From contig PLHP01000200.1 in assembly GCA_003138955.1 (NCBI GenBank), forward strand, positions 1 through 58,162: a stretch of DNA of 58,162 bases, in the 5' to 3' direction. This document shows, one piece after another, positions 22,002 to 45,226 of the stretch. Every line of letters begins with the position of its first letter. Within the stretch, counting starts at the first letter, position 1. A program made the translations under genes and the position numbers. Source of the stretch: Acidobacteriaceae bacterium (GTDB lineage: Bacteria; Acidobacteriota; Terriglobia; Terriglobales; Acidobacteriaceae). The notes under the pieces were generated by a model that ran no database searches, had not been told where the DNA came from, and saw only the letters and a list, made by a program, of their open reading frames with translations.

Positions 22002-22002
22002 G

Positions 22003-27192: not shown

Positions 27193-27217
27193 GAGCTGAG
27201 AACCGGGAACTGAGAAC

Positions 27218-28498: not shown

Positions 28499-28573
28499 AT
28501 GCGGTTCGTATCGGGGCATCGCTTTAGCGACGCCAAGAGTGCTTTGAAATCAGACGCCCCTTTAGGGGTTGGG
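28496..28573 (+). repeat. Intergenic repeat element, copy B
   Basis: It has the same 30-nt core (28505-28534) and the second block agacgcccctttaggggttggg. Relative to copy A it has a 5-nt insertion (gcggt). It begins at the TAG stop of the M20 gene. Confidence 0.8.
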
Positions 28574-28587
28574 CATCAGAGGTCCTT

Positions 28588-29733
28588 TTGCCAAGTCCGA
28601 AAGAAATCGATCGCCGTTACAAGAACATCCGCTCCCGCATGCAAGCCGCCGGACTGGACGCTCTGATCGTCTGCGGCAATCAATACGCTGGATTCGAAGG
28701 CGCGGTCTTCTACACGTCCGGATTCGAGATTGTCCATCGTTACGTTTACGTCGTCATCCCGCTCGAAGGCGAACCCACGCTCGTCTTTCCGCGCGAAGCT
28801 CGCTGGATTGGCGACAAAAACAAGCCCTGGGTGAAAGACCAGGTCTGGCCCGACGTTCCCGGCCAATGGCTGCGCGACCGCGCTATCGAGCGCAAATGGA
28901 AGCGCATCGGCACGTTTGGGATGAACTTCGTCATGGCCGTTCGCGACTACCGCGAACTGGCGCAAGGTTCGTTCGAACTCGTGCCCTTTGACCAGGAATT
29001 CGACATGGCACGCGCCGTGAAGAGTGCAGAAGAACTCGTTGAAGTTCGCGACGCCATGGACATCGTCGTCGATGGCTTCTGGGCGCTGGTCGCGGGCTAC
29101 AAGCCGGGCAAGACCGAAGCTGAAATCATGGCGCCCGCGGTGGAGCGCTTCTTCGCTCGCGGCGCCGGCCCGCGCATGATGAACATTCTTCTCTCGGGTG
29201 AACACGGGGAGGCGAACGCGTACTTCAAAGTTCCCGGTCATCGCAAAGTTTCGGGCGACGATCTTCTTCTTTATTCGCTCGAAGTTACCGGAGCGGGCGG
29301 TTATTGGGTGGAATTTTCGCGTGCGCTGATCCAGGGAAAGCCGAGCGCCACCACGCAGAAGATGGCCGACGTTTATCCGCACGCGATGGAATCAGCTCGC
29401 AGATTGATGCGTCACGGCGAACTCGCTTCCACGGTGCATCGCACGGTTGCCGACATATTTGACAAGCACGGTTTCACACTCGGACATCTTTCCGGCCATA
29501 GCATCGGGATGACGATGCTTGAGTATCCCGCCATTGGTGCGAAAAGCGAGGTTCGACTGGAAGAGAACATGATCTTCTCCCTGCATCCGCAGGTCGTGGA
29601 TCAGAACGGAAGGGTTTGCCTCTACACGCAGGACACGTACCGCATCGGCAAGACCGAAGGCGAGTGTTTGGCCAACGTGCCGTGGAAGTTCTTCACGGGT
29701 GAGGAGACGCGGGGAAGCGCGGTGGGAGGTTAG
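28588..29733 (+). CDS. M24/creatinase-fold protein, copy b, with substituted metal-ligand positions
   Basis: The pita-bread fold is recognisable (GYWVEFSR, GHSIG). The positions of the two canonical Glu ligands read SLHPQ and YTQD. TTG start with an AGAGG RBS. Confidence 0.65.
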   Translation: MPSPKEIDRRYKNIRSRMQAAGLDALIVCGNQYAGFEGAVFYTSGFEIVHRYVYVVIPLEGEPTLVFPREARWIGDKNKPWVKDQVWPDVPGQWLRDRAIERKWKRIGTFGMNFVMAVRDYRELAQGSFELVPFDQEFDMARAVKSAEELVEVRDAMDIVVDGFWALVAGYKPGKTEAEIMAPAVERFFARGAGPRMMNILLSGEHGEANAYFKVPGHRKVSGDDLLLYSLEVTGAGGYWVEFSRALIQGKPSATTQKMADVYPHAMESARRLMRHGELASTVHRTVADIFDKHGFTLGHLSGHSIGMTMLEYPAIGAKSEVRLEENMIFSLHPQVVDQNGRVCLYTQDTYRIGKTEGECLANVPWKFFTGEETRGSAVGG

Positions 29734-29736
29734 AGA

Positions 29737-29779
29737 TCAGATTGCAGACGTAAACGGGCCTGTAGAATCTGCAATCTGA
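29737..29779 (+). promoter_or_regulatory. Perfect 12-bp inverted repeat (intercistronic stem-loop or binding site)
   Basis: tcagattgcaga (29737-29748) pairs with tctgcaatctga (29768-29779) across a 19-nt spacer. There is no downstream T-tract. Confidence 0.4.
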
Positions 29780-29810
29780 CCTGTGACCTTCTGATATTAG
29801 GAGCGAAGTC

Positions 29811-30737
29811 TTGCTAAAGATCTGCATCGTCGGCTGTGGTGCGGTGGGCAGCTTGTTTGCTGCGCATCTGGCTAAGAAAGGCGAGGCCGAAATCTGGGCC
29901 TACGACGTCTGGAAAGACCACGTCGAAGCCATCCGCAATAACGGTCTGCGTATTTCCGGAGCCGCCGATTTCACTGCGAAGCTGAATGCCACCAGCGATG
30001 CCAAGGAACTTCCGCGCTGTGACTATGGCATCGTCGCCACCAAAGCCATCCACACCCGTGGCGCGATCGCGCAGGTTGCCCGCGCCTTCGACGAAAACAG
30101 CGCTGTCTGCTCCGTTCAAAACGGCGTCGGCAACGAAGAGATCATCGCGGAACACGTGAAGTACGTCATTCGTGGCACGACGTTCCCCGCCGGACATCCC
30201 ATCGCTCCCGGCCACATCGGCTTCGACATCAAGGGCGACACCTGGATTGGTCCCTTCGAACCGACGAACACTCCGATGTCAAAGGTTGAAGAACTGGCCG
30301 GGCTGGTTACGCGCTCAGGCATGAACGTGATCGCGCTCAAAGATGCGCGCGGCGCGCAGTGGACGAAGCTGATCTTCAATGCGTCCACTAATCCGGTGGG
30401 GGGGCTGACCCTGCTGCATCACGGCGCCGCCACCCGATTTCCGGCGACGGCACAGTTATTCAATGACTTGATCGCGGAGGGTGAGGCGGTAGCGAAGGCG
30501 CTGGGCATCGAACTGCACGGGGATCCGCGAGCGCTGGTGCAAAAGGGTGCGAGCGCTCCCGGAAAACACCGGGCGTCGATGCTGCAGGACGTACTCGCCA
30601 AACGCCAGACCGAAGTCGACTTCATGAACGGCGCAATCGCGAAATGGGGCGAGAAGACCGGCGTTACGACGCCCCTAAATAAAGCCGTATGGGAGCTGAT
30701 CAAGGGCCTGGAGCACGCCTGGAGCGACCCAGATTAG
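29811..30737 (+). CDS. Ketopantoate reductase (PanE/ApbA) family oxidoreductase, copy 2
   Basis: A clear paralogue of 25034-25984, sharing CGA.GSL.AAHLA, QNGVG.EEIIA, W.GPFEPT.TP and AQW.KLIFN. TTG start after an AGGAG RBS. Confidence 0.75.
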   Translation: MLKICIVGCGAVGSLFAAHLAKKGEAEIWAYDVWKDHVEAIRNNGLRISGAADFTAKLNATSDAKELPRCDYGIVATKAIHTRGAIAQVARAFDENSAVCSVQNGVGNEEIIAEHVKYVIRGTTFPAGHPIAPGHIGFDIKGDTWIGPFEPTNTPMSKVEELAGLVTRSGMNVIALKDARGAQWTKLIFNASTNPVGGLTLLHHGAATRFPATAQLFNDLIAEGEAVAKALGIELHGDPRALVQKGASAPGKHRASMLQDVLAKRQTEVDFMNGAIAKWGEKTGVTTPLNKAVWELIKGLEHAWSDPD

Positions 30738-30793
30738 AGATTTCATTTCGCAGCATTAACCAGGAACGAGAAAGAGGAAACAGAGAAACGATT

Positions 30794-31861
30794 ATGCCCG
30801 TCTCATTCAACATCGGAGTCCTGCAACTCAGTATGGAGCCCGTCCAAGAAACCGTGGCCATGGCCAAGGCGTGCGAGGATGCGGGCTTCGACACCTTCTG
30901 GATCGCGGAAGCCTATCCCTGGTGGCGGAAACATTCATTCGAAGCCCGCTCCTCGACCGCCATCTTGGCTGTCATCGCCAGCCAGACCAAGCGCATTCAG
31001 CTCGGTTGGGGAATTATTTCTCCCTACACACGCCATCCTGTCGAGATCGCGATGGAAGCACGGGTTATGCAGGATCTGGCCGGCGACCGCTTCCTCATGG
31101 GCCTGGGCGCGTCGAAGATCTTCATGAAAGAAATCGGCGAGGGGGAAGGCGAGAAGGTCGGTCCCGCGACCGTGATGCGGGAAAGCATCGAGATCATCCG
31201 CGGCATACTCAAGGGCGACAAATTCGAATATCAGGGCAAAGTGTTTGCGGCCAGCGTTCCCCCGGTGAAGAGCGACGCGCACGCCTCGCGCAAAATCCCG
31301 CCGTTCTATGTCGCCGGCACCGGCCCGGTGATGCAGAAGCTCGGCGGATCGCTGGGCGACGGGCTGCTCACCGCCTCGATTACCACGCCCGCGTTCGCAC
31401 GTTATTCGAAAAGGAACATGGAAGAAGGCGCAGCGAAAGCGGGCAAGGATGCTTCCAAACTGGTTCTCGGCTGCGTGATCGTCGGCAGCATCGGGCGCGA
31501 TTCGAAAAAAGGAAAAGAAGGCGCGCGCGAGCAGGCCGCCATGTATCTTGCCAATAAAGTGCAGAACATCAAAGGTTCAGCCGATGTGTTGCTCGAATCC
31601 GCCGGCATCACTTTCGAAGAGCTGCAACCGGTCGCGGACGCGATGGAAAAAGGGGGACGCAAAGCCGCGGCGCAGGCCGTCAGCGATGAACTTCTGCGCA
31701 AAGTCTGTCCCATCGCGGGGACGCCCGACGAGTGCATTCAGAAGATCGAAGAATACCGCGCCGCTGGCTGTACCCACATCATGCTCGAAATCTGGGGCGA
31801 CGACCGCACGGGGCAAGCGAAATTGTTTGGCGACGCGGTATTGCCGCATTTGAGAAAGTAA
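30794..31861 (+). CDS. LLM-class oxidoreductase, Mer-like (probably F420-dependent)
   Basis: The ATG at 30794 is chosen because the listed ORF extension overlaps the PanE2 3' end. It aligns by eye with methylene-H4MPT reductase (Mer): I.LG.G...PY.R.P...A.....L...R...G.G, P.Y.A..GP.M.K..G...DG.L.. and GTPDE.I.KIE. Confidence 0.6.
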   Translation: MPVSFNIGVLQLSMEPVQETVAMAKACEDAGFDTFWIAEAYPWWRKHSFEARSSTAILAVIASQTKRIQLGWGIISPYTRHPVEIAMEARVMQDLAGDRFLMGLGASKIFMKEIGEGEGEKVGPATVMRESIEIIRGILKGDKFEYQGKVFAASVPPVKSDAHASRKIPPFYVAGTGPVMQKLGGSLGDGLLTASITTPAFARYSKRNMEEGAAKAGKDASKLVLGCVIVGSIGRDSKKGKEGAREQAAMYLANKVQNIKGSADVLLESAGITFEELQPVADAMEKGGRKAAAQAVSDELLRKVCPIAGTPDECIQKIEEYRAAGCTHIMLEIWGDDRTGQAKLFGDAVLPHLRK

Positions 31862-31953
31862 GGAACCTGGGTTGCGGGCGTTGTCTGCGTAAGGGACAAC
31901 GTCTGTTTCCCTCAATAAAATCTGAGGCTGCTTTAGCCTACGGGCAAACGTCG

Positions 31954-33009
31954 ATGAAACTTGTGACCTTTGAGAACGCTGCGCGCCAATCCCGCATTGG
32001 CGCGCTAGTGGGAGACCATCCTACTGCTGATCGGCAGGATGCCGATCTGCACATTGTTGACCTGCACACGGCTTGCGCGCTTTACCTGCGCGATGTCGAG
32101 AGCGAAGCCATTTTCTACCGCATGGCCGATGCCTTGGTGCCGCCTGACATGCGAGCCTTGTTCCGTGGCGGAGACACGAGCCTGGAAGCCGCGCGCAAAG
32201 CTCTCGACTATGTCGTCCACCTCGCGGCCGGCGTCACCGGCATCGTCGGTCCGCGCGGCGAGAGCGTGCTCTACTCGCTCCGCGACATACAGCTCAAGGC
32301 GCCCATCATCCCGAAGAAGTTTTTTCACACGGCGGGCAACTTTCGGGAGCACCACGAAGAAGCGACCAAAGCCGGTTTTTCGCATCCGGTCATGCCGTGG
32401 ATCGTTTTTTTTCAGAACACGGACGCGATCATCGGACACGAAGAGCCGGTGATCTACCCCGAGCACCTTACGCAGGAACTGGATTACGAACTGGAACTGG
32501 CGGTCGTTCTAAAGAAAGCTGGCAAGCACTTTACGCCGGAAGAGGCGTCCAGCTACATCGGCGGCTATGTAATCTTCAACGACATTACGGCGCGCGACAT
32601 TCAGCGCCGGGAAATGAAATCGGGCGTCTTCAGCTTCTGCAAGGGAATCGACACCTTCTGCCCGCTGGGGCCGTGGATCGTGACCGCCGACGAGATTCCC
32701 GACGCGCATAACCTGGCCATGGAGCTGCGTGTGAATGGCGAGTCGCGGCAGCGCTCGCACTCGAGCAAAATGTCGGTCAAGATTCCGGAGATCCTCTCGC
32801 ACTACTCGCCGATGGGATACAGCGCGGGCGATGTGGTCTCGACCGGAACGGTCTCGGGCGTGGCGGCGTTTTCAGGAGATCCGAAGACGTGGTACCTGAA
32901 GCCGGGCGATGTGATGGAATGCGAAATCGAAAAGATCGGCGTGTTGCGGAATCCGGTGATCTCGTGGGAAACGGCCTATGGCAAGAAACCGGCAGCGCTC
33001 GCGACGTAG
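31954..33009 (+). CDS. Fumarylacetoacetate hydrolase family protein (cytoplasmic)
   Basis: The ATG at 31954 (MKLVTFE...) is chosen. FAH-domain motifs present are K.F....NF..H, LDYELELAVV, ND.TARD.Q and GDV..TGT..G. Confidence 0.8.
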   Translation: MKLVTFENAARQSRIGALVGDHPTADRQDADLHIVDLHTACALYLRDVESEAIFYRMADALVPPDMRALFRGGDTSLEAARKALDYVVHLAAGVTGIVGPRGESVLYSLRDIQLKAPIIPKKFFHTAGNFREHHEEATKAGFSHPVMPWIVFFQNTDAIIGHEEPVIYPEHLTQELDYELELAVVLKKAGKHFTPEEASSYIGGYVIFNDITARDIQRREMKSGVFSFCKGIDTFCPLGPWIVTADEIPDAHNLAMELRVNGESRQRSHSSKMSVKIPEILSHYSPMGYSAGDVVSTGTVSGVAAFSGDPKTWYLKPGDVMECEIEKIGVLRNPVISWETAYGKKPAALAT

Positions 33010-33042
33010 GAAACGGTGAAGTAGGCGTGTGTCGAGGAGGAT

Positions 33043-34249
33043 CATGACTGCAAATTCTAAGATCTGGGTGAGCGAACTCAACGCTCGGCCGGAGGTTCGG
33101 GCCTCGTTTTCGGAAACGCCCATCCGGTTTTACGATACGACGCTGCGCGATGGTGAGCAGACGGTTGGGGTCGTGCTCTCGCCGCAGCAGAAGCTGGAAA
33201 TCGCGTACAAGCTGGATGAGCTCGGAGTGAGCCGCATTGAAGCCGGATTTCCGCGGGTCTCGGTGGAAGACGCGGAAGCCATTCAGCTCATGCAGAAGGC
33301 CGGCATCAAGGCGGAGCTCTGGGGATTTTCGCGCGCCGTCAAAGCCGACGTCGCAGAGTTGGTGCGGCTGAACCTTCGCTATACCGTGATTGAAGCGCCC
33401 GTCAGCGAGATCAAGCTGAAAGCGTATGGCCTTTCGCGGGAAGAAGTGCTGCGCCGAATCCGCGATGCTGTCTCGGCGGCGCGAGAGGCCGGTATTACGG
33501 TAGCATTCTTCGCTGTCGATGGAACGCGCACCGAGCTGGAATTTCTGAAAACCGTTTACCTGTCGGCGCTCGATGCTGGAGCGAAGGAACTGGTCGTCGT
33601 CGACACGATCGGCGCTTGCGGGCCAGAGGCGGCGGAATATCTGACACGACAAGTTTGCGAGTGGGCGGGCAAAGATGTGCCCGTGCATTTCCACGGGCAC
33701 AACGATTTCGGCATGGCGACGGCCTGCGCGGTGGCGGCCGTCCGCGGCGGAGCGACCTGGATCCAAGGCACGATCAACGGCATGGGAGAGCGCGCGGGCA
33801 ATGCCGATATCGCCGAGATTGCGCTCGCGCTGCGCTGCCTCTATGACGTACCGGTAGTACTGAATCTCGAAAAGGTGCGCGAGGTTTCCGAGGTGGTGCA
33901 GCGGGCTGCGGGGTACACGCTTGAGGCGTGGAAGCCGCTGGTCGGCCAAAACTTGTTCATGCGCGAAAGCGGCGCGGTAGCCAGCCAGTTTCATCTCCCG
34001 GAGGCAATCGAGCCCTACTCGGCGGAAATTGTGCAGGCGGAGCGCCGGATCGTTCTCGGCAAAAAAAGCGGGCTCGACAGCATCGACCTGAAATGCAAGG
34101 AGCTCGGCATTACGGTCGCGGCCGAGCAGCGGGGTCCGGTGCTGGCAGCGGTGAAGCTGGCCGCGGTCAATCAGGCTGCGGCCGGCAAATGCGGGTTGGT
34201 AAGCAATGACCAGTTTCGGCAGATTCTGGCGGCCATGCACATTGGCTGA
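33043..34249 (+). CDS. DRE-TIM metallolyase / 2-isopropylmalate-homocitrate-citramalate synthase family protein (short form, no LeuA regulatory domain)
   Basis: FYDTTLRDGEQ, HFHGHNDFG and NGMGERAGNA are motifs of the pyruvate-carboxyltransferase (HMGL-like) domain. The ATG at 33043 follows GAGGAGGA. Confidence 0.8.
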
Positions 34250-34370
34250 AATCGGGGTCTGAGATCTGGCTGAATGAGGCCGCTCGGGCGCAAATCACAA
34301 GGATGTGTGATCAATATCACTGCACCGAGTGAGCGTCTGGGCGACCTTAGGATCTTGCGTGGAGGTCCAC

Positions 34371-36881
34371 ATGGGAGTGGCACAATCGGTCCCGGTCGAA
34401 TCCAACTGGATACCAAGCACCTGCGGCATGTGTCTGCATGGCTGCGGAATCCTGGTACAGGTTCGTGATGGAGTCGCGCTCAAGATCGAAGGCGATCCGT
34501 CTAACCCCGACAATCTAGGCAAGCTGTGTCCCAAGGGCAATGCCGGGCTGTCGCGCTTGTACGATCCCACGCGTGTGCTCAAGCCCATGAAGCGGACGAA
34601 TCCGCAAAAAGGACCCGGCATCGATCCGAAATGGGTGGAGATCTCGTGGGACGAAGCCTACGGCATCGTCGCCCAGGAACTGGGCAAGGTGCGGGCCGAT
34701 GATCCACGCAAGCTGCTCTGCGCTATCGGCGACTTCCAGAGGATTCTTCTGTGGGGCTGGCCGGCAGCGTTCGGTTCGCCGAACTTCTTTACCTCGCTGG
34801 GGAATTACTGTGGTGGTTCTTACCATCCGGTGAATGGCAGCGTCGATGGCTCGTTCGCCGCTATCAACGACTATGACCTGTGCAACTACTGGATCCAGAT
34901 TGGCTCCGGCGACGGATTTTCCTCGCACCTGCACCTTGCAGGCAGTGCCAAGCGGATGGCCGACGCGCGCATGCGCGGCATGAGGGTCGTGAGTCTCGAC
35001 CCGCGCTGCTCAATCGCGTCGGCGAAGGCCGATGAGTGGATTCCCGCCCTGCCGGGCACGGATCGGGCTTTTGTGCTGGGCATGGCCCACGTGCTGATCC
35101 ACGAACTAAAACGTTACGACCGGGAATTTCTGCGCGATCGGACGAACGCTCCGTATCTGGTAAAGAATGACGGCCACCATCTGCGCTCTGCGGACGGTAA
35201 GGCGATGGCATGGGACCTGAAGCTGGGGGCCGCACGCCCGTGGGATGAAGTCGCGGCGGGAAACATGGCGCTGGAGGGAACATTCACTGTGGACAACGCC
35301 AGCGTCCGCACTGGCTTCCAGGTGTGGACGGATCTTTTGGCAGATCACACGCCGGAGCGGATGTCCCAAGTGAGCACGGTTCCGGCCGGCACGATCCGCC
35401 GTATCGCGAAGGAATTCGTGGATGCGGCACAGATCGGCGCCACCATCGAAATCCAGGGAAAGACTTATCCGTTCCGCCCCGCCGCCCTGAATTACTACCG
35501 CGGCTCGCAGTCGCATTCCAACGGCTTGTTCGACAACCTGACGTTCAAGATGATCAATATGCTGGTGGGCAACATCGACGTGCCCGGCGGCCATCTCGGC
35601 GTGCCGCTGGATCATCGCGGCTTCTTCGTGCATCCCGGCGAGGATGGCATGTTGAAGCCGGAGCCGCACCAGTTGCACCCAGCTCCGCCGTTCAAATATC
35701 CGCCCGACTCGACCCACCTGATGGAGTGGTTTCCCATAGGGTTCGACGCCGGGCAGCTCAACACCGAGACCCTCCTCGACCCGAAGAAGTTCGGCCTGAA
35801 TTACGAGCCCGAAGCCGTACTGCTCTACCACTCGAATCCATTGTGGAACCTGCCGGAAACCGACAAGGTCGAAAAGATCATGGCGAAAATGAAGTTTGTC
35901 GTCGCCATTGACATTCAGCACACGGAGTCGACGCAGTGGGCGGACGTATTCCTGCCGGCCCACACCTTCCTCGAGTCTTACTTGCTCAATTGCCTCGAGC
36001 CCCCCGCGGTCACCGGCCACTCGCTGCGGCAGCCGGTCGTCGAACCTGTGGGAGATACGCGCGACGCCTACGATATCCTCACCGAACTGGCGGAGCGGAT
36101 GGGCTTCCGGGATGACTGGAATGACGTCCTGAACATGGTCTGCGGTTATACCGCACAGCCGAAGTATCTCCTCGATTCGGAAAAGCGTTACAGCGTCGAG
36201 GAGTTTTGGGACCAGTACGCGCGCAGCGTCTACGGCGATGAAAAAGGACTGGACTGGTTCAAGGAGCACGGGCACGCGGTGCGCTACCGCACTCCGGAAG
36301 AAACCTACATGCCCTATGGCGACCTGCGCATCCCGTTTTATTTTGAGTTCATCCTGCGAACGGGAGAGGACATGCGGCGCAACTTTACCGAGGTGGGATT
36401 GAAAGACTGGCCGCTCGATAACTACCAGCCCTTGCCGTTCTGGAAAAACTCGCAGGTGATCGAGGACGAGAAGGCGGGCTACGAATACTTCGCGATTACC
36501 TTCAAGGAGGGCCTGCACACTTTCGCCGACACGATGGTGATGCCCTGGCTCTCCGAGGTGAGCGAGAAAGACTCCGTCCATGGCGGCGTTTTGATCAACT
36601 CCCTGACCGCGAGAAAGCTGGGATTGAAGACCGGAGACCGCATTCGCCTGACTTCGCCGGCCGGAAGCATCGAGGGGTTTGCGCAGGTGATCGAAGGCAT
36701 TCATCCGCAGGTGTTCGGAGTCAGCAACACCCTGACGCGGTACGTCGTAACCAACGACCGGGCGAAGGAACGCGGTACGCACTTCAACCGGCTGCTGACG
36801 GGATCGATGCGCTATACCGACAGCGCCACGGGTGGGCTGGAATCGACGGCGCGGGTCCGAGTGGAATGGGTTCGAGCCTAG
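34371..36881 (+). CDS. Molybdopterin (bis-MGD) oxidoreductase catalytic subunit, DMSO-reductase family, no Tat signal
   Basis: The ATG at 34371 follows GGAGG. The N-terminal C-x2-C-x3-C-x27-C [4Fe-4S] motif reads CGMCLHGCG...LCPKG. At 836 aa, its length and composition are typical of Psr/Phs/Soe-type A subunits. No RR motif exists in the only 14 possible upstream codons. Confidence 0.85.
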   Translation: MGVAQSVPVESNWIPSTCGMCLHGCGILVQVRDGVALKIEGDPSNPDNLGKLCPKGNAGLSRLYDPTRVLKPMKRTNPQKGPGIDPKWVEISWDEAYGIVAQELGKVRADDPRKLLCAIGDFQRILLWGWPAAFGSPNFFTSLGNYCGGSYHPVNGSVDGSFAAINDYDLCNYWIQIGSGDGFSSHLHLAGSAKRMADARMRGMRVVSLDPRCSIASAKADEWIPALPGTDRAFVLGMAHVLIHELKRYDREFLRDRTNAPYLVKNDGHHLRSADGKAMAWDLKLGAARPWDEVAAGNMALEGTFTVDNASVRTGFQVWTDLLADHTPERMSQVSTVPAGTIRRIAKEFVDAAQIGATIEIQGKTYPFRPAALNYYRGSQSHSNGLFDNLTFKMINMLVGNIDVPGGHLGVPLDHRGFFVHPGEDGMLKPEPHQLHPAPPFKYPPDSTHLMEWFPIGFDAGQLNTETLLDPKKFGLNYEPEAVLLYHSNPLWNLPETDKVEKIMAKMKFVVAIDIQHTESTQWADVFLPAHTFLESYLLNCLEPPAVTGHSLRQPVVEPVGDTRDAYDILTELAERMGFRDDWNDVLNMVCGYTAQPKYLLDSEKRYSVEEFWDQYARSVYGDEKGLDWFKEHGHAVRYRTPEETYMPYGDLRIPFYFEFILRTGEDMRRNFTEVGLKDWPLDNYQPLPFWKNSQVIEDEKAGYEYFAITFKEGLHTFADTMVMPWLSEVSEKDSVHGGVLINSLTARKLGLKTGDRIRLTSPAGSIEGFAQVIEGIHPQVFGVSNTLTRYVVTNDRAKERGTHFNRLLTGSMRYTDSATGGLESTARVRVEWVRA

Positions 36882-36889
36882 GGGGAAGC

Positions 36890-37183
36890 ATGACGAGCGC
36901 AAAGATTGCGGCACTGGGGACGACGCGCAAGATGCTGGGATTCAGCCGGCGGACGGTGGAGGTCGAGTTTGACAATGCCACGGTCGCCGATGTCCTGCGC
37001 CAGTTGCCGACCCTGGACGGGCGCACCCTCTATGACAACCTGGTTTGCGACGGACGGTTACGCGGCGATTTCGCGGTGGTGGTAGATGGTCTGAGTTTGA
37101 AAGCGGATCAGTTGAACAGGCGCCTGCAGGGAGGCGAGGAGGTCGTCACCATGGCGATCTTGCGCCACCTGCACGGCGGCTGA
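36890..37183 (+). CDS. MoaD/ThiS-like beta-grasp protein with a C-terminal Gly-Gly
   Basis: 97 aa, with the ATG following GGGGGA. The layout matches MoaD: ...TVEVEFDNATVADVLRQL......L.......L...FAVVVDG.......L..GEEVV........GG*. It ends LHGG immediately before the stop. Confidence 0.6.
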   Translation: MTSAKIAALGTTRKMLGFSRRTVEVEFDNATVADVLRQLPTLDGRTLYDNLVCDGRLRGDFAVVVDGLSLKADQLNRRLQGGEEVVTMAILRHLHGG

Positions 37184-37193
37184 CGGAGCGCCC

Positions 37194-37805
37194 ATGGCTA
37201 GATACGGAATGGTGATCGACCTGAAGCGGTGCATCGGCTGCAATTCGTGCACCCTCGCCTGCAAGCAGGAAAACGGTACACCCGAGGGCGTGCACTTTGC
37301 CCGGGTAGTGACGCGCGAAGTGGGGACCTACCCCGCAACCAAGCGAACCTTCCTGCCCGTGCTTTGCAATCACTGCTCGGACGCGCCTTGTGCGGAAGCC
37401 TGTCCCACCGGTGCCACCTACATCCGTGCGGATGGAATTGTGATGGTGGATAAGGGAAAGTGCATCGGCTGCCGCGCCTGCAACGTGGCTTGTCCATACA
37501 TGAACCGTCACTTTGTCGCGAAAGGCCTGCTCACGGGCTACGGCACGGACGGCCTAACGCCGTATGAAGCGATCAAGTTCCTGGACTTTGAAGAAGGCAC
37601 CAATATCAAGTGCACGCTGTGCGCGCCTCGCGTGGACCAGGGTCTGGAACCAGCGTGCGTCATAACTTGCCCAACGGATGCTCGCGTCTTTGGCGATGTG
37701 GAGGATCCAAACGGCAAGCTGCAGCGCCTAGTCAAAGATCGGAAGGGCTGGACCTTGTCGCCCGAGTACAACACAAAGCCCAACGTGTGGTACCTGGACG
37801 AATAG
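37194..37805 (+). CDS. Four-cluster [4Fe-4S] ferredoxin-type electron-transfer subunit (PsrB/DmsB/SoeB-like)
   Basis: Four Cys groups are present: CIGCNSCTLAC, CNHCSDAPCAEACP, CIGCRACNVACP and CTLC...ACVITCP. Confidence 0.9.
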   Translation: MARYGMVIDLKRCIGCNSCTLACKQENGTPEGVHFARVVTREVGTYPATKRTFLPVLCNHCSDAPCAEACPTGATYIRADGIVMVDKGKCIGCRACNVACPYMNRHFVAKGLLTGYGTDGLTPYEAIKFLDFEEGTNIKCTLCAPRVDQGLEPACVITCPTDARVFGDVEDPNGKLQRLVKDRKGWTLSPEYNTKPNVWYLDE

Positions 37806-37836
37806 TGAGATCCGGCGCAGGAAGCAGGGAGAGACA

Positions 37837-38742
37837 GTGACCACACAAAGTGTTGGAATTGCGAACCACCGTTTCGCGTTCGGGTACTACCGCCAAACGT
37901 TCTGGAACTGGCTGATCGGCACCGCTTTCTTCCTCGGCGGTCTGGGCGCGGGATTGTTTGTCCTGGCGTTGCTCACCGATCACACGGCCGGGATGCTGGT
38001 CGGGTACCTGATCGTAGTCGTCGGCAAAAACACCGCGCACTTGCTTTTTCTCGGCCGGCCGGAGCGTTTCTGGCGGGCGGCGATGCGTCCCGACCGCTCA
38101 TGGATCGCGCGTGGCATCTGGGCCATGGGATTGTTTGCGGTGAGTGGCCTGATTCTGCTCTTACCTCGCGTGCTGGGGCCCGCATGGCAACTCTCCGGCT
38201 GGCTGAACGGCGCGGCCACGGCGGTTGCGGTTCTGTCGGCGGTCGTCATCATGTTCTACGATGGGTTCGTCATGAACTCTTCCCCGGGAGTTGCTTTCTG
38301 GCGGACGCGCCTGCTCCCGCTCCTGCTCCTGATGTATGCAACTTTGGGTGGCGCCACGTTGTCGCTGACGATTCGCGAACTCCGGGGAGAGGCAATTCCA
38401 GGCTTTCTTCCCACGCTCGAACACGGATTGCTGGTGGTGAATTTTGTCCTGCTCGCAGTCTACCTGGCGCGCATGAACCGCTCGTTACCCGCCGCGCGCG
38501 AGACTCTGCGCCAGTGGTTGAGCGGGCCATATGCACGCGTGTTCTTTGGACTGGTTCTGCTGGTCGGACTATTGGCTACTCTGCTGCTCTCGGTGGTTCA
38601 GAGTCACGTGCAGGCGACCGGGCTCGTTTTACTCATTGCCGCCTGTGAACTAACCGGCGATTTCACTTTGGTGATGGTCTTGCTGAAGTCCGGTTTGTTT
38701 CCGCGGCAGACTGCGCTCGCGTACAGCGCCCGCGGCATCTGA
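37837..38742 (+). CDS. NrfD/PsrC-type polytopic membrane anchor subunit
   Basis: 301 aa with about 8 TM helices. W.WLIGTAFFLGGLGAG and LGRPERFWRA..RP.RSWIARG are NrfD/DmsC-family hallmarks. GTG start after GGGAGAG. Confidence 0.8.
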   Translation: MTTQSVGIANHRFAFGYYRQTFWNWLIGTAFFLGGLGAGLFVLALLTDHTAGMLVGYLIVVVGKNTAHLLFLGRPERFWRAAMRPDRSWIARGIWAMGLFAVSGLILLLPRVLGPAWQLSGWLNGAATAVAVLSAVVIMFYDGFVMNSSPGVAFWRTRLLPLLLLMYATLGGATLSLTIRELRGEAIPGFLPTLEHGLLVVNFVLLAVYLARMNRSLPAARETLRQWLSGPYARVFFGLVLLVGLLATLLLSVVQSHVQATGLVLLIAACELTGDFTLVMVLLKSGLFPRQTALAYSARGI

Positions 38743-38787: not shown

Positions 38788-39996
38788 ATGAGCAAACATG
38801 CTCGCCTGTGCTATTTCGATCACGCCTCCTTAGGACGGCCTGGCCGCAAGACCATCGAGCGGGTATGGAAGGAAGTCGCCCGCGCAAGCCAATTCGCCAC
38901 CAGCGGGACGCTTGAGACGCTTCGGCAGTTCAAGGCTGTTGACGATGCCCGGCGCCGGATCGCGCGTTTCGTTCACGCCGATCTGGAAAGTGTTCTGCTG
39001 GTCGGGAACACAACGCAGGCGCTGGGCATGATTGCAACTGCACTGCCCCTGCATCGAGATGACAACGTCCTGATTGCGGACGTCGAATTCATGGGAGTAA
39101 CGGTAGTGTGGCGGAACATCTGCCGCCGCCTTGGCGTTGAGTTGGTGCCGGTCCCCAGCACGGGAGGGCAGCTTGCCGCCGAACATTTTTCGCGGTTCGC
39201 CAATTCCCGGACCAGGGCCATCGTCATCAGTACCGTGCAGGAAGTGAGCGGGTGCCGGGCCGATGTCGAGACGATTCGCGAAGTGGCGTCAAGAAGCGGC
39301 GCCTTTCTGATCGTCGATGGCATTCAGGAAGTGGGTGCGGTCCCGGTTTTCTTCAAAGAACTCGGTGTAGATGCCTACTGCGCGGGCGGGCACAAGTGGA
39401 TGCGGAGCCCGTTTGGAACGGGATTTGCCTGTCTGAGCCAGCGGCTGCTTGAGGTGCTCGACCCCAGCTACCATGGATATCTGGCGCTGGCCGAACCGGA
39501 GATGGGTTGGGATCGCTACATGGGACTAACGTCACGTTCACCGTTTGACCTGTTACCGCTACGGCAGGATGCTGTTCGCCTGGAAACCGGAGGGTTCCCG
39601 AACTGGCTCGGAGCCGCTGCTCTAGATACAGCGGCGAGTGAACTCGAATCCAAAGGACAGACACGCGTGTGGGCCCGAATCCGGCGCTTAAGGAAACGCC
39701 TGGTTGCGGGACTTAGCGAAATGGGAGTTGAGATACTTGGCGGGGTCGACGTTCCCGAGAGGACACAGTCGGGAATTGTTACGTTTCATCTGTTAGGTGG
39801 TGCGGGACAAGAAAGACTGCTTGGCCGGCGCCTGAGTGAGGAACATATCCAAGTTTCGTTGCGATATGTTTCAGGAATAGGAGGGGTCCGTGTGGCGGTT
39901 CACGAGAGTAACAACGCGGACGAAGTAGATTACCTTCTCGATGTTGTGCGCTCCTTCTTGCGCGGTGCAGCATACAAGATAGGCTCGCACGCTTAA
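38788..39996 (+). CDS. Class-V aminotransferase-fold PLP enzyme (paralogue 1)
   Basis: 402 aa. GGHKWMRSPFGTGF supplies the PLP-lysine motif, and the C-terminal VRVAVH..N is class-V like. Confidence 0.8.
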   Translation: MSKHARLCYFDHASLGRPGRKTIERVWKEVARASQFATSGTLETLRQFKAVDDARRRIARFVHADLESVLLVGNTTQALGMIATALPLHRDDNVLIADVEFMGVTVVWRNICRRLGVELVPVPSTGGQLAAEHFSRFANSRTRAIVISTVQEVSGCRADVETIREVASRSGAFLIVDGIQEVGAVPVFFKELGVDAYCAGGHKWMRSPFGTGFACLSQRLLEVLDPSYHGYLALAEPEMGWDRYMGLTSRSPFDLLPLRQDAVRLETGGFPNWLGAAALDTAASELESKGQTRVWARIRRLRKRLVAGLSEMGVEILGGVDVPERTQSGIVTFHLLGGAGQERLLGRRLSEEHIQVSLRYVSGIGGVRVAVHESNNADEVDYLLDVVRSFLRGAAYKIGSHA

Positions 39997-40063
39997 GTAG
40001 CGATAAGAGACCATTCAATCGACATTTTCTTTTTTACTCCAAAACAGAAGCTTCGGAGCCGCT

Positions 40064-41500
40064 CTAGTTGCGCTGAACCTTCCAATACACAAGACTGATT
40101 CCGGCCAGCAAAGCCGCAAAGATCGGAACTGAATAGCGCAGGCCCTCCACATAAAAAGTGCTGCACCCGATGGCAACGAGAAATAAGATGCCCATGATGC
40201 TGGAGACCGGAAACAGCCGGAGCCGTAACGGCAAATCGTTTACCTTGGCACCGATGGAGCGGCGAAACCGCAGGTGAGCCAGGAGGATAACGATCCACAC
40301 AAAGTACATTCCCGCGACTGCGGAACCGTACATGAGGAGAAATGCGCCTTTGGGAACGTAAATGGCCAGTAAAATCGCAAGTACCATTCCTAAACTTGAA
40401 ACAGCTAGCGCCCGATGCGGCACCCCGTTCCGGCCCAAACGCCCCAAGGGCTCAGGCGCATAGTGTCCTCGCGCCAGAGAGAAGAGCATCCTGGTGGTAA
40501 GGTAGAGGTCGGTGTTCGCGCTGGAAAGTGCCGCCGTGATCACAACCAGATTCATGATCGCGGCCGCGTAAGGAATGCCAATTGCTGCGAAGACGCGTAC
40601 GAATGGACTGCCGCTGATGGTCCCGTCACCGATCTGGTTCCAGGGAGACACGGTGACCATCACGGTCATCGCCAGAACATAGAACAGGATCAGACGGAAA
40701 ACCATCGTGCGCATGGCGCGCGGGATCGCTTTTTCCGGCCGCTCTGCCTCTCCCGCCGTGACTGCAATCACCTCGACCCCCATGTAACTCGAAATGGTGA
40801 GAGTAAAGGCCAGCCACACGCCAAGATACCCATGAGGCAGGAAGCCGCCATAGGCGACGAGATTTCGAAATCCCACCGCCGGACGGGGGGACAAGCCGGT
40901 GATCAGCGCGATCCCAATCAATATGAAAACGATGATCGCGACCACCTTCACAAAGGCGAACCAATACTCGAATTCTCCAAAATTGCCAACCTGCGCGGCA
41001 TTGATGGCTACAAGTCCAACGGAAACCAGGGCGACCCAAAGCCACTGCGGCGTTCCCGGAAACCAATACCGAAAATAAATGGCCACTGCTGTAACCTCGG
41101 CGCCAATGGCCACCATCTGGACCAGTCCGTAAGTCGCACGCACGGTGAAGCCGAACCACGGACTCAGGTAGCGCTCGGCATAGATACCAAACGCGCCGGC
41201 TACCGGATGGACCACCGCCATCTCAGCCACTGCGTAAGCTACGATCAGGGCCAGAATCGCCCCAAGAAGATAATTAAGAATGACCGCCGGCCCGGCAAGG
41301 TCAATGGTTACGCTACTGCCCAGGAAAAGACCGACTCCAATGGCGCCGCCAATGGCGATCATGGAGATCTGGCGCTCGGTCAATCTCCGCTGCAAATTCT
41401 GCGCCGAGGGCGTCGAGTCGAGGGCTTGCTCGCCTGCAGGGTCCGCGATTGTCACCGTGACCTTCCGCCTTCTTGCTTCGTCGCCGGACGCAGCAGACAT
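40064..41500 (-). CDS. APC-superfamily amino acid permease
   Basis: 478 aa with about 12 TM helices. The N-terminal L.RRLTERQISMIAIGGAIGVGLFLGSS signature matches amino-acid permeases of the AroP/GabP/LysP type. Confidence 0.85.
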   Translation of the reverse strand: MSAASGDEARRRKVTVTIADPAGEQALDSTPSAQNLQRRLTERQISMIAIGGAIGVGLFLGSSVTIDLAGPAVILNYLLGAILALIVAYAVAEMAVVHPVAGAFGIYAERYLSPWFGFTVRATYGLVQMVAIGAEVTAVAIYFRYWFPGTPQWLWVALVSVGLVAINAAQVGNFGEFEYWFAFVKVVAIIVFILIGIALITGLSPRPAVGFRNLVAYGGFLPHGYLGVWLAFTLTISSYMGVEVIAVTAGEAERPEKAIPRAMRTMVFRLILFYVLAMTVMVTVSPWNQIGDGTISGSPFVRVFAAIGIPYAAAIMNLVVITAALSSANTDLYLTTRMLFSLARGHYAPEPLGRLGRNGVPHRALAVSSLGMVLAILLAIYVPKGAFLLMYGSAVAGMYFVWIVILLAHLRFRRSIGAKVNDLPLRLRLFPVSSIMGILFLVAIGCSTFYVEGLRYSVPIFAALLAGISLVYWKVQRN

Positions 41501-41515
41501 GACATGTTGTGCAAA

Positions 41516-42784
41516 CTAATTGCCAGCGATCTCCTCCAATGCGTTGACGAACCTGCGGATCTCATCCTGCGTGTTGTAGTGCACCAGCGAGGCTCGCACC
41601 GCGCCGCCCTCGCTCAATACTAGCCGTTTCATCAGCCTCGGCGAATACATATTGCCATCCCGCACTGCGATCCCCTTGGCGGCCAGCCTGGCTGCTACCG
41701 TAGCGGGTGGAACGCCCGCAAGATTGAACAAGAACGTCGGCAGCCGTTGCGCAATAGCCTTCGGGTCTTGTATGCCGTACACTGTTGCTCCCTTGATTGC
41801 GCCGATACCCGCCAGTAGCGCGCCGGACAGGCAACGTTCATACTGGCATATTGCCTCCATCGCCCTCACCAGGCGTTGACGATGCGAACTCGAGCCATCT
41901 TTTCTGTCTCCGTCACACAGATCTCCGAGTTCCGCCAAGTATTCAATCGCCGCATTCATACCCACAACATTCTCGTAAACGAACGTTCCCACCTCAATTT
42001 TTGAGGGCGGAGTATTCGGAATGAAGTCTTCGCGGAAGGTTGGCAGAGCCTCGAGGGCCGCGCGGCGGCCCCACAAGAAGCCCATGTGTGGAGCGAAGAT
42101 CTTGTAGCCGGAGCAGACCAGATAATCGCATCCCCAGGCCCTGACGTCGATGGGGCCGTGGGGCGCGTATTGCACGGCATCGAGGAAAACCTCGGCGCCC
42201 GCGGCATGGGCTCTCCTCGCCACCTCGGCCACATCTATGATCGTTCCTAAAGCATTCGACGCTACCGTACAGGCTACCAGCCGCGTCCGGGAAGAGAGCA
42301 GCGGCTCCAGGTCGGCCACACGCAGAGTGCCGTCGTCAGCTACGTTCCACCACCGGATGACCGCGCCTTCACGCTCCAGGGCCAGCCAGGTTGCGACGTT
42401 GGCCTCATGATCGAGATCGGTCACGATGATTTCGCGCCGCTCTGCCAGAGTCTGCCCAATGGCGAGGCTTACCAAGCGCATGAAGGACGTGGCATTCATA
42501 CCGAATGCAATCTCATCGGGATCGGCCGCGTTCAGAAAAACTGCCACTGATTTCCGGGCTTGGGCGATCGCGGCATCCACTTCCTGGCTTTCCCGGTAGC
42601 AACCGCCTCGCTGCACGCTTCGCGTGAGCAGGTGGTCGGCAACCGCGTCCAGGGCTTTCTGGGGGATTTGGGCTCCCGCGGCATTATCGAAGAACATGGA
42701 GCTCCCTGGCCGATTCAACGCAGGAAACATCTGCCGCACGCGATCTACGGGGAATTCCGCCAGGTTGGCCGCTCTTTCACGCAT
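41516..42784 (-). CDS. Cysteine-desulfurase-like class-V PLP enzyme (paralogue 2, no catalytic Cys at the SufS position)
   Basis: FDNAAGAQ.P, DHEANV and SGYKIFAPH.GFLWG (PLP Lys) are present. The segment aligned with SufS GIAVRTGHHCAMPL reads GIAVRDGNMYSPRL. Confidence 0.75.
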   Translation of the reverse strand: MRERAANLAEFPVDRVRQMFPALNRPGSSMFFDNAAGAQIPQKALDAVADHLLTRSVQRGGCYRESQEVDAAIAQARKSVAVFLNAADPDEIAFGMNATSFMRLVSLAIGQTLAERREIIVTDLDHEANVATWLALEREGAVIRWWNVADDGTLRVADLEPLLSSRTRLVACTVASNALGTIIDVAEVARRAHAAGAEVFLDAVQYAPHGPIDVRAWGCDYLVCSGYKIFAPHMGFLWGRRAALEALPTFREDFIPNTPPSKIEVGTFVYENVVGMNAAIEYLAELGDLCDGDRKDGSSSHRQRLVRAMEAICQYERCLSGALLAGIGAIKGATVYGIQDPKAIAQRLPTFLFNLAGVPPATVAARLAAKGIAVRDGNMYSPRLMKRLVLSEGGAVRASLVHYNTQDEIRRFVNALEEIAGN

Positions 42785-42816
42785 AGATCACCTCAACAAA
42801 GAATTCCGCGCGCATT

Positions 42817-44058
42817 CTAATTCTGCCTGGTGGCTTTCGCGGCAACCCGTCCGTTGCTCTTGCGCGGTACAGCCGACTCGATGGCTTCGAGCAGCCGGTC
42901 GATGTCGGCGGTATTGTTGAAAAAATGACAGGAGACTCGCACCCCGCCTACATTCGATGTATAGCGCACCGAAACTAAAATCTTCAGCTCGAGGAGCTTC
43001 TCCATCAGTCGGATGTTTTCTGCCGCAGAGCCAACGCTGAAGGTCACGATCCCGGAACGATGCTTGCGCGCGACCGGCGTCACGATCTCAATGCCGAGAG
43101 CTTGTAGTCCTTCGATGAGGTGATCGGTCAAGGCGTAGGTGTGCTCGGCGATGCGGTCCTGGCCGAGAGACTGAATCATTTTCAGCGCAGCCGCTAATCC
43201 GATGCCTCCGGCGTAATTTGCCGTCCCGCCGATCTCGTAAACCCGCGCGCCTTTCGTGAATTCATAATCCATGACCGGCCGAATCGATGGTGTCTGGAAA
43301 TGGGCTCCCCATCCACCTTGCGGCGGCTCCACGTTCATGTAACCAGTAAGAGGCGGCAGCAACTTTCGCAACGCCTCCCGCCGGATGTACAAAAAGCCCA
43401 TGCCAAACGGAGAAGTGAGCCACTTATGTCCGCCGCAGGCAAGAAAGTCCACCGGCGTCTTTTGCACATCGAGGGGAATTGCGCCGAGCTGCTGGATCGC
43501 ATCCACGACAAGCCAAACTTCCTTTTCAGCGCAAAGAGAACTGAGTTTCTCGAGATCGCATCGGAAGCCATTACTCCACTGCACCGTACTAATGCAGACG
43601 ACTCTTGTCTTCGATGTCAAGCGCTCTGCAATGTTCTGTACTCTCACTTCCCCGTTCTGGTTGGGGACAACATCGATGCTAATGCCCCGTGCCGCCAGTT
43701 GGATCCAAGGTACGGCTACTTCCAGAAACTCCAAATCGGATATAAGGACGCGGTCGCCAGGCGAAAGAGGAATCGATTGGGCGGCGATGCTGAGCCCGTG
43801 ACTGGTGCTTTCCACCAAGGCGATCTCATCTTCGTCCGCATTGATCAGGCGCGCGGCTTCCGGCCGGGCGAGAGCGCGCATTTCATCCATCGAGATGTGA
43901 TGCAGAGTGGACGATCGCGCCGGGCAAAGCAGCGTCATGTCGAGAAAATTTCGGATCGCTTCGGTGGCCACACGAGGGGCAAGGCTTACGCACGCGGCAT
44001 CCAGGAACGTCTTGTGTAGAAGCGCGGGAAATTGTTCGCGAGCGTCCTCAAAATCCAT
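42817..44058 (-). CDS. Class-V aminotransferase-fold PLP enzyme (paralogue 3)
   Basis: It carries the GGHKWLTSPFGMGFLYIRR PLP-lysine motif. The start lies 1 nt after the stop of paralogue 4. Confidence 0.8.
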   Translation of the reverse strand: MDFEDAREQFPALLHKTFLDAACVSLAPRVATEAIRNFLDMTLLCPARSSTLHHISMDEMRALARPEAARLINADEDEIALVESTSHGLSIAAQSIPLSPGDRVLISDLEFLEVAVPWIQLAARGISIDVVPNQNGEVRVQNIAERLTSKTRVVCISTVQWSNGFRCDLEKLSSLCAEKEVWLVVDAIQQLGAIPLDVQKTPVDFLACGGHKWLTSPFGMGFLYIRREALRKLLPPLTGYMNVEPPQGGWGAHFQTPSIRPVMDYEFTKGARVYEIGGTANYAGGIGLAAALKMIQSLGQDRIAEHTYALTDHLIEGLQALGIEIVTPVARKHRSGIVTFSVGSAAENIRLMEKLLELKILVSVRYTSNVGGVRVSCHFFNNTADIDRLLEAIESAVPRKSNGRVAAKATRQN

Positions 44059-44059
44059 T

Positions 44060-45226
44060 TCAGTCGCCGCTCACAGCGGCCGTGCCGGTGACCAGCAGGT
44101 CGAGATTCTGTTCTAACACCTGGAGGACTGCCCGTACATCCTCGAGAGTATTGTAGACATGGAAAGAAAGGCGCAGCCCATCGTGGCGGCTGGAACACAC
44201 GATCCCGTTGGCCGCCAGTTTTTCGACCAATCGGGCGGCGTCCTTGCATTGGAAAACGACGAGCGGTCCCACGCTTGTGGTTGGTGTTTTGGCAATCAGG
44301 CCCAGTTTCTGCGCCCCCTTTAAAAGTGCGCTTGTCAGTTCGTGGATCTGCCAGGATACGTTGTCTAGTCCGATCTCCTGCAATAACTCAATGCCCCGCA
44401 TGGCTGCATAGATATTGGGCACGGCAGGAGATCCTTCTTCAAACCTGCGCGCCGAAGGAGCGGGATCGAAACATTTCACGTCGAAGGCGAAAGGATTGCG
44501 TTGCGCAAACCAGCCTGTAATCGTGGGCTGGAGAGATGCGATCAGCTCCTTGCGGACATACAAAAATGCCAAGCCGGGTGGTCCCAACAGGTACTTCAGC
44601 GTTCCCGTTACATAGAAGTCGACGTCCGCAGTTCGAACGTTCACCGGCCGAGTGCCACAGTCCTGGTAATCATCCAGCATAACCAGCGCGCCATTGGCGT
44701 GCGCAAGCGGAACGACTTCGCGGACTGCCGAGCGGAAGCCATTCATGAAGCAAACTCCGGTCAGGGGAACGATGAGAGTTTGGCGGTCGATCGCGCGCTC
44801 GTAATTTTCCGTCGGAATCGAATTGCCCACCGCGCTGACAAACTCGACTTGAGCTCCGCGCTTCTGCTGGGCCAGCCAAACATGGCCCATGGTCGGAAAC
44901 TCGAATTCGCCCATTACCACTTTCCTCCGGCGATCAAACGTCAAAGCGCTGGCAATCGAGTTCATGCCAGCCGATGCACAGGGGACGATGGCAACTTCAT
45001 CGGCGGTGGCGCCGATAAAACCGGCGAACTGCGACCGTGCTGCCTCATATCTCTCCACCCAAATATCCCACGGTGAACCATGCTCATGCCAGCTCGCCAC
45101 GTACTCACGAAGACCGTTCTCCACGGCGTCCGATAGCGCTCCTTGCGAGCAACTGTTCAGATAGATCTTGTTCCGGAGGAGGGGGAATCGCGATCGAATC
45201 GCTTGTAACTCGGGGCTGCTTAGCAT
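44060..45226 (-). CDS. Class-V aminotransferase-fold PLP enzyme (paralogue 4)
   Basis: N-terminal FPLL.NKIYLNSCSQGALS, TGTLKYLLGPPGLAFLYVRK (PLP Lys) and C-terminal LRLSFHVYNT.EDV are present. Confidence 0.8.
   Translation of the reverse strand: MLSSPELQAIRSRFPLLRNKIYLNSCSQGALSDAVENGLREYVASWHEHGSPWDIWVERYEAARSQFAGFIGATADEVAIVPCASAGMNSIASALTFDRRRKVVMGEFEFPTMGHVWLAQQKRGAQVEFVSAVGNSIPTENYERAIDRQTLIVPLTGVCFMNGFRSAVREVVPLAHANGALVMLDDYQDCGTRPVNVRTADVDFYVTGTLKYLLGPPGLAFLYVRKELIASLQPTITGWFAQRNPFAFDVKCFDPAPSARRFEEGSPAVPNIYAAMRGIELLQEIGLDNVSWQIHELTSALLKGAQKLGLIAKTPTTSVGPLVVFQCKDAARLVEKLAANGIVCSSRHDGLRLSFHVYNTLEDVRAVLQVLEQNLDLLVTGTAAVSGD

Follow-up and report, generated by a model that had tools for sequence, protein, structure and literature searches.

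A Gly-Gly-terminated MoaD-type protein encoded inside molybdoenzyme operons as a candidate dedicated sulfur carrier

Results

A small conserved gene between molybdoenzyme subunit genes

The DNA analysed here, hereafter the window, comprises 58,162 nucleotides of contig PLHP01000200.1 (assembly GCA_003138955.1) from an Acidobacteriaceae bacterium. It contains an operon for an enzyme with a molybdenum-bis(pyranopterin guanine dinucleotide) (Mo-bisPGD) cofactor, in which a small gene, S, is nested between the genes for the catalytic subunit (A) and an iron-sulfur subunit (B), followed by a membrane anchor gene (C). A sequence-only reading of this DNA had drawn attention to S as a 97-residue open reading frame (ORF) ending in Gly-Gly inside a Mo-enzyme operon, and both observations were confirmed. 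Because the window is G+C-rich and contains many long spurious ORFs, the coding status of S needed to be checked. Word-indexed searching of 5.8 billion proteins recovered 283 homologues; 120 of them were listed, with 72–99% identity to S, and these derive mostly from metagenome-assembled genomes (MAGs) of Terriglobales/Acidobacteriota. The ratio of nonsynonymous to synonymous substitution rates (dN/dS) against 16 Terriglobia orthologues was 0.06–0.20, with one value of 0.40 (last 70 codons), in comparisons where dS was near saturation. S is a real gene under strong purifying selection.

S starts with ATG at 36890 and stops with TGA at 37181–37183. A 105-residue version starting from the ATG at 36866 found no support, as the homologues are 95–97 residues long and begin M(T/A/P)(S/T/I)A. 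The Shine-Dalgarno-like element GGGGGAAG overlaps the last base of the TAG stop codon of A (36879–36881), which suggests translational coupling of A and S, and at locus L098 the two reading frames even share 4 nt. B begins 10 nt after the stop codon of S.

Table 1 Features of the S locus in the window
Feature	Position	Strand	Evidence or remark
A, catalytic Mo-bisPGD (dimethyl sulfoxide (DMSO)-reductase-family) subunit, 836 aa	34371–36881	+	Pfam Molybdop_Fe4S4, Molybdopterin, Molydop_binding
Shine-Dalgarno-like GGGGGAAG for S	36881–36888 (1–9 nt upstream of S)	+	Read from sequence
S, 97-aa MoaD/SAMP1-like beta-grasp protein, ending ...AILRHLHGG (stop)	36890–37183	+	Homologues, AlphaFold2 model, profiles, dN/dS
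C-terminal Gly-Gly codons of S, GGC GGC	37175–37180	+	Presumed adenylation/thiocarboxylation site
B, four-cluster 4Fe-4S ferredoxin, 203 aa, 16 Cys	37194–37805	+	Pfam Fer4_11 and related; NCBIfam ArrB/DsrO/TtrB-like under cutoffs
C, NrfD/PsrC-like membrane anchor, 301 aa	37837–38742	+	Pfam NrfD, E 1e-12

S has a beta-grasp fold of the archaeal MoaD type

An AlphaFold2 model of S built on 23 homologues (predicted local distance difference test score, pLDDT, 82; predicted TM-score, pTM, 0.73) has a beta-grasp fold, with strands at residues 2–8, 20–25, 61–65 (AVVVD) and 85–92 (VVTMAILR), helices at 11–16, 32–37 (VADVLRQ) and 47–51, and an HLHGG tail. This is the strand-helix order that the sequence-only reading had recognised as a MoaD/ThiS pattern. 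Comparison of the model with the PDB using Foldseek gave SAMP1 (3po0, E 9e-5) as the top match, along with Pyrococcus MoaD (1vjk) and mycobacterial MoaD (6jbz); further matches included HVO_2177 (2m19), Urm1, E. coli MoaD and CysO. The probability was 1.00 and the TM-score 0.6–0.75 for SAMP1, MoaD, Urm1 and CysO.

Distant relatives were collected with an exhaustive hidden Markov model (HMM) search of 1.84 billion cluster representatives, which yielded 46 matches; two of these, P0122 (2135 aa) and P0152 (455 aa), were discarded as false positives, being surface proteins of repetitive sequence. Thirty-two diverse full-length relatives, 25–46% identical to S, were used to build a profile (A2), leaving out four full-length relatives without Gly-Gly and several fragments. 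The archaeal MoaD model TIGR01687 (moaD_arch) was matched by 28 of the 32, the SAMP1 model by 26, Pfam ThiS by 24 at E<=0.01 (best 2.7e-16) and the NCBIfam Urm1_like model by 12. S itself did not match the bacterial MoaD equivalog (TIGR01682 / PRK11130). Searched against the PDB, the A2 profile matched HVO_2177 (1.9e-9), Ta0895 (2e-9), Pyrococcus MoaD 1vjk (4e-8) and the CysO-like protein 4n6e_B (7e-6). A profile of close homologues (A1) matched nothing in the PDB, and the solved MoaD-type proteins were reached only with the diverse profile.

The archaeal-type MoaD/SAMP1/HVO_2177 proteins (TIGR01687; 3po0, 1vjk, 2m19, 2g1e) thus provide the best profile and structure matches of S, sharing its strand-helix order, GD motif and Gly-Gly terminus. 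S differs from them in its sub-cutoff scores, its tail length (see below), its Terriglobia hosts and its nesting in enzyme operons. Canonical bacterial MoaD, represented by the E. coli MoaD-MoaE complex (1fm0), appears to share the fold, the Gly-Gly thiocarboxylate site and the link to Mo enzymes; S, however, lacks a moaABCDE context and an FPPV(T/S)GG tail, and matches E. coli MoaD with a Foldseek E-value of only 2e-3.

The similarity to SAMP1 and Urm1 raises the question of whether S could be a protein modifier, its Gly-Gly being joined to lysine residues of the Mo enzyme, or of cofactor synthesis proteins, in a regulatory role. SAMP1 is the best structural match and HVO_2177, which we take to be SAMP3, the best profile match; more than a third of the diverse relatives match Urm1_like, and the HGG terminus of S resembles that of Urm1. 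Haloferax SAMP1, as described in PMC4443979, both serves as MoaD and modifies MoaE. The examined loci, however, have no E1 or JAMM/MPN gene near S, and the association of S is specifically with Mo enzymes. We know of no established SAMP-type conjugation in bacteria, and the hosts of S are almost all bacteria. We regard a modifier role as very improbable.

An invariant Gly-Gly and an elongated tail

The terminal Gly-Gly is kept in 119 of the 120 close homologues listed, and in the alignment of the 32 relatives chosen for profile A2 its two glycines are the sole invariant columns. Among the 46 distant matches, 24 end exactly in Gly-Gly, eight have Gly-Gly followed by 1–13 residues and four are full-length without it. 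An invariant, free Gly-Gly indicates chemistry at the C-terminus and not merely a binding surface. Extensions beyond Gly-Gly were seen at L056 (12481–12774, ...VAGGQAVS), in a Chloroflexota A-S-B-C operon, and in P0125, P0129, P0133, P0138, P0142 and P0155.

The tail itself is longer than expected. From the G(D/E) motif to Gly-Gly there are 12 residues in the S family, compared with 9 in solved MoaD, SAMP and CysO, and every alignment of the S-family profile to the solved proteins has a three-residue gap just ahead of the tail. The three residues are also present in family members from xanthine dehydrogenase (XDH)-type operons, described below, and are missing from P0162 and P0164, the most canonical-looking matches. 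On these comparisons we place S in a distinct branch of archaeal-type MoaD, one with three extra residues ahead of the Gly-Gly tail.

S is embedded in the operons of two molybdoenzyme families

Using the A subunit as a genome-scan query, we gathered 80 related loci. S follows A directly in 43 sources: the window, L001–L005 and 37 of the 80 scanned loci, where it was detected with a small-protein HMM. The hosts include most Terriglobia, a Blastocatellia, Bacillota (L038), Chloroflexota (L056), Gaiellales (L058) and an Archaeoglobi MAG (L061); further metagenome loci have the order A-S-B(-C) or A-B-S. When S relatives were clustered at 50% identity, 11 clusters with readable context adjoined Mo-bisPGD genes, ten of them as A-S-B(-C) and the remaining one as A-B-S. 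At least three further clusters lie inside operons of a second kind, encoding XDH/CoxLMS-type enzymes, with the gene orders FAD-Fer2-S-MoCoBD (L086, L097) or FAD-Fer2-MoCoBD-S (L092). As the two kinds of host operon share only the Mo cofactor, this is the common denominator of the association. One MAG, JBHHYX01 (Maj_2_bin.26), has two paralogous A-S-B-C operons (L030 and L062), each with its own copy of S. We also noted hydantoinase/oxoprolinase A and B genes adjoining S-bearing XDH-type and A-B-C operons on two unrelated metagenome contigs (L086, 12887–16297; L094, 6315–10637), the second of which also has an acetone-carboxylase gamma-like gene.

Pfam scans of the sizeable and gap ORFs of the window found no MoaE, ThiF/MoeB, ThiG, JAMM, rhodanese, XdhC or NarJ-type protein, upholding the report of the sequence-only reading that MoaE, MoeB/ThiF, ThiG and JAMM genes are absent; moaA and moaC are likewise missing from the window. 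The 128 otherwise unassigned neighbours at 22 diverse loci with S included no family of the ThiF, MoaE, JAB, rhodanese, XdhC, MoaA or MoaC kind with three or more members, and the S-bearing operons examined contained no chaperone gene of the NarJ/DmsD or XdhC type. From the lack of an adjacent E1 the earlier reading had concluded that the context is not one of canonical molybdenum cofactor (Moco) synthesis. That step is not supported, since MoaD rarely adjoins MoeB (Iyer et al. 2006, PMC1779556) and a class of MoaD genes adjacent to the genes of tungsten enzymes, the aldehyde oxidoreductases (AOR), is known to serve dedicated cofactor synthesis.

S is absent from many orthologous operons

In an Actinomycetes clade, a Desulfosporosinus/Peptococcaceae clade, all Proteobacteria and the Terriglobia loci L022 and L035, B follows A directly and S is missing. 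The A subunits of S-less orthologous A-B-C operons show 44–56% identity, rising to 77–81% in the two Terriglobia cases. B and C have similar lengths with and without S, and no indel in A was found to track its presence; hence no fusion compensates for its absence. At L022 the A-B spacer (12480–12545) retains the last 11 codons of S (..MPIFLHLAGG), with a mutated stop codon, while A, B and C are intact. This remnant may represent a recent secondary deletion of S or an assembly artefact. The patchy presence of S, including the L022 deletion, implies that the enzyme is not strictly dependent on S in cis.

These patterns bear on two alternatives. The first is that S is an ordinary housekeeping MoaD that came to lie in this operon by chance. 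Its MoaD-type sequence and fold would fit; however, sister Terriglobia operons lack S (L035) or have it deleted (L022) with A, B and C intact, S diverges from canonical MoaD models and carries the longer tail, one MAG has two copies, each in a paralogous operon, and S never adjoins moaE, moaA or moaC at the loci examined. A chance placement seems to us very doubtful.

The second is that S serves as a fourth subunit without catalytic function, or as an assembly chaperone dedicated to the enzyme, binding A or the XDH large subunit while the cofactor is inserted or afterwards, with no sulfur chemistry at its C-terminus. The genes around S are always structural ones, set off from it by very short spacers or overlapping it, and S takes the position that narJ occupies in narGHJI; the paralogous operons at L030 and L062 each keep their own S; and some family members have residues after Gly-Gly. 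Five columns of A (E466, T467, D585, G650 and K733) also separate S-bearing from S-lacking lineages, which is weak evidence. We considered these substitutions as a possible binding interface for S, and set the idea aside because they are too few and too confounded by phylogeny. Set against this alternative are Gly-Gly as the sole invariant feature of the family, pointing to C-terminal chemistry, the many orthologous operons without S and with no compensating fusion or A indel, and the absence of the related aorD/aorE products from purified AOR (PMC6365974). The sequence-only reading had offered a structural beta-grasp subunit as one of its two possibilities; patchy presence and Gly-Gly as the only invariant feature disfavour a purely structural role. 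We consider a subunit or chaperone without sulfur chemistry rather unlikely.

The host enzyme and its genomic surroundings

A has an N-terminal 4Fe-4S motif (C-x2-C-x3-C...C), and its ATG start is fixed by homologues of 834–836 residues. Among proteins of solved structure, A is closest to ArrA (6cz7, E 3e-48) and PsrA/thiosulfate reductase (2vpw, E 5e-40). The best NCBIfam match, PhsA, scored 277 bits, far under the cutoff of 694, and A has no NCBIfam equivalog match; JGI annotators have named it only as an "anaerobic selenocysteine-containing dehydrogenase". As A lacks a twin-arginine (Tat) signal, A and B are predicted to face the cytoplasm. SoeABC, whose A subunit is likewise without a Tat signal (PMC8076601), and PsrABC share the architecture of a Mo-bisPGD A subunit, a B subunit with four [4Fe-4S] clusters and an NrfD-like C subunit, and sulfur oxidisers, Thiodiazotropha and Sulfuritalea among them, have relatives of A. 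Unlike SoeABC, the host enzyme is encoded in an organic-catabolism cluster and not in a sulfur-oxidation context. An identification as SoeABC is not supported by annotation or gene context: no relative is named SoeA, and the proteobacterial clade has the XDH, luciferase-like, FAH and M20 neighbours found in the window.

Upstream of the operon lie HMGL-like, FAH-family, luciferase-like, ApbA-like, M24, M20 and M24 genes, and a CoxLMS/XDH-type enzyme with CoxG. The A-B-C genes recur across phyla beside XDH-type trios and luciferase-like, FAH, M20, M24, ApbA and HMGL-like genes (window 20621–38742; L042, L051, L074, L079–L083 and others) in Terriglobia, Actinomycetes, Bacillota and Beta-/Gammaproteobacteria. 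Judged by gene content, these genes appear to form a conserved catabolic module served by two distinct molybdoenzymes.

Downstream of the operon are a class-V aminotransferase gene, an amino-acid permease gene and three further class-V genes. We note that these four paralogous class-V aminotransferase/SufS-like genes (38788–45226; one on the + strand, three on the − strand) flank the permease. The sequence-only reading had connected S with these cysteine-desulfurase-like neighbours, and had suggested, as the other of its two possibilities, that the Mo enzyme uses or forms the thiocarboxylate of S. A wider form of this idea would have S pass sulfur on to a metabolite of the pathway, with the same enzymes as its source. 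Apart from the genes in the window, such a role is suggested by known metabolite sulfur donors of the same fold (CysO, QbsE and PdtH; PMC1779556), the match of the family profile to CysO-like 4n6e_B and an AMP-dependent ligase gene ahead of A at L003. The neighbours, however, are not conserved. The four-gene array is kept only in the closest relatives (L006, L057 and partly L010); a class-V gene directly follows C in the window and L006 only, with L010 and L057 having class-V genes further downstream, and L001/L009 (88% identity) have a nitroreductase gene after C instead. In addition, S-less orthologous A-B-C operons occur in the same neighbourhood of XDH, luciferase-like, FAH and M20 genes, and S is found in unrelated XDH/CoxLMS-family operons without A-B-C. 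Neither the window nor the related loci contain the operon partners of CysO, QbsE or PdtH (an E1-rhodanese, JAMM peptidase or CysM-type acceptor), unlike every characterised metabolite-sulfur system. A role for S in substrate or metabolite sulfur chemistry is therefore improbable.

Other features of the window are recorded here in their own right. Probable coenzyme F420 genes, encoding CofH/MqnC-like radical SAM, CofE gamma-glutamyl ligase and F420-dependent NADP oxidoreductase-like proteins, together with two luciferase-like oxidoreductase genes and a nitroreductase-family gene, were noted at 11014–14113 (−) and also at 7075–8940 and 30794–31861. This gene content suggests F420-dependent steps in this acidobacterial catabolic island. 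Two consecutive ORFs (414 and 165 aa) without Pfam match lie at 18759–20497, with a TonB-dependent receptor-like gene on one side and the XDH-type operon on the other.

Discussion

The classification of S given by the sequence-only reading stood up well to these analyses, and most of its functional inferences from the neighbourhood are not supported by them. We tentatively favour the interpretation that S is a sulfur carrier of the MoaD type, dedicated to its host enzyme and used in cofactor maturation, a counterpart of the AOR-linked aorD/aorE, and probably neither a substrate nor an obligatory subunit of its host enzyme. This is based on the invariance of Gly-Gly, the Mo cofactor shared by the two host enzyme families, the patchy presence of S, the fact that MoaD genes normally lack an adjacent E1 and the AOR precedent.

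We infer the following scheme for its activation and sulfur target. S would be transcribed, and probably also translated, together with A, B and C of the Mo-bisPGD enzyme. A housekeeping E1 of the MoeB/MoeZ type, encoded elsewhere, would adenylate its C-terminal glycine, and the adenylate would be converted to a thiocarboxylate by a cysteine desulfurase or rhodanese relay. The sulfur would then pass to the Mo cofactor of the co-encoded enzyme, the target being the dithiolene sulfurs of molybdopterin (together with MoaE) or, less likely, the terminal Mo=S ligand. S may in this way fill the slot of a private maturation factor that is held by narJ, xdhC or fdhD in other molybdoenzyme operons.

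The closest precedent is the class of AOR-linked MoaD proteins (class 3, "tungsten cofactor biosynthesis", of Iyer, Burroughs and Aravind 2006). Where a MoaD gene lies strictly next to an AOR gene, it has been proposed to make molybdopterin for AOR (PMC1779556), and the MoaD-like aorD/aorE of Aromatoleum aromaticum lie in the AOR operon without being found in the purified enzyme (PMC6365974). Like S, these are Gly-Gly beta-grasp genes beside the structural genes of a pterin enzyme, outside the main moa operon and sporadic in phylogenetic distribution. They differ in partner enzyme, AOR as opposed to Mo-bisPGD A-B-C or XDH/CoxLMS enzymes, and the tail of the S family is three residues longer. 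The terms "molybdopterin oxidoreductase" and "xanthine dehydrogenase" have no mention as contexts in PMC1779556, and our literature searches found no specific account of DMSO-reductase or XDH operons that contain MoaD-like genes, nor any of the tail feature. NarJ/DmsD/TorD, XdhC and FdhD follow the same operon logic, being encoded by small non-subunit genes among structural genes that are dispensable in some lineages, and two of them, XdhC and FdhD, act in passing sulfur to Mo. Their folds are unrelated to that of S and they lack a Gly-Gly terminus, so that the analogy is one of role only.

Several observations weigh against a dedicated sulfur carrier. Eight cluster representatives have 1–13 residues beyond Gly-Gly; these members would need processing, and no protease gene, JAMM-type or otherwise, was found near the GG-extended S loci. 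The three additional residues of the beta5/tail region may misfit a standard MoaE pocket. No E1 or MoaE gene was found in the window or at the 22 diverse S loci, and none of MoeB, MoaE or MoaA is encoded near S there, whereas MoeB is frequent in AOR-linked MoaD clusters. The scores of S against the relevant models are below their curated cutoffs (14 bits versus 22.5 for Pfam ThiS, PF02597; 14.8 versus 49.5 for moaD_arch, TIGR01687; 20 versus 60 for SAMP1), and only two of the 32 diverse relatives match TIGR01682 (E<=0.01). Lastly, the tight A-B nesting and the separate copies of S in L030 and L062 would likewise be compatible with S being a stoichiometric partner.

A further alternative, for which the distance of S from canonical MoaD, its longer tail and the lack of MoaE leave room, is that S belongs to an undescribed class of molybdoenzyme-specific Gly-Gly carriers that serve two enzyme families by acting directly on the apo- or holo-enzyme, and not via MoaE. 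Such a protein might deliver a terminal sulfido ligand, or insert its thiocarboxylate tail into the active-site funnel. We judge this direct mode of action unlikely.

The routing of Mo cofactor to specific enzymes is poorly understood beyond the NarJ/TorD, XdhC and FdhD systems. Operon-embedded, enzyme-linked MoaD is already known; the host operons described here and the tail feature appear to be new. Hard-wired into the operons of two molybdoenzyme families, with a long tail and no private E1 or MoaE, S offers a tractable handle on this problem. It could be used to address how sulfur and pterin are channelled to one enzyme, whether a ubiquitin-fold carrier can act directly on apo-enzymes and how helpers of this kind come and go in evolution. 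The analysis also flags an uncharacterised, predicted cytoplasm-facing Mo-bisPGD complex, conserved from Terriglobia to Proteobacteria and Archaeoglobi and encoded within a catabolic module.

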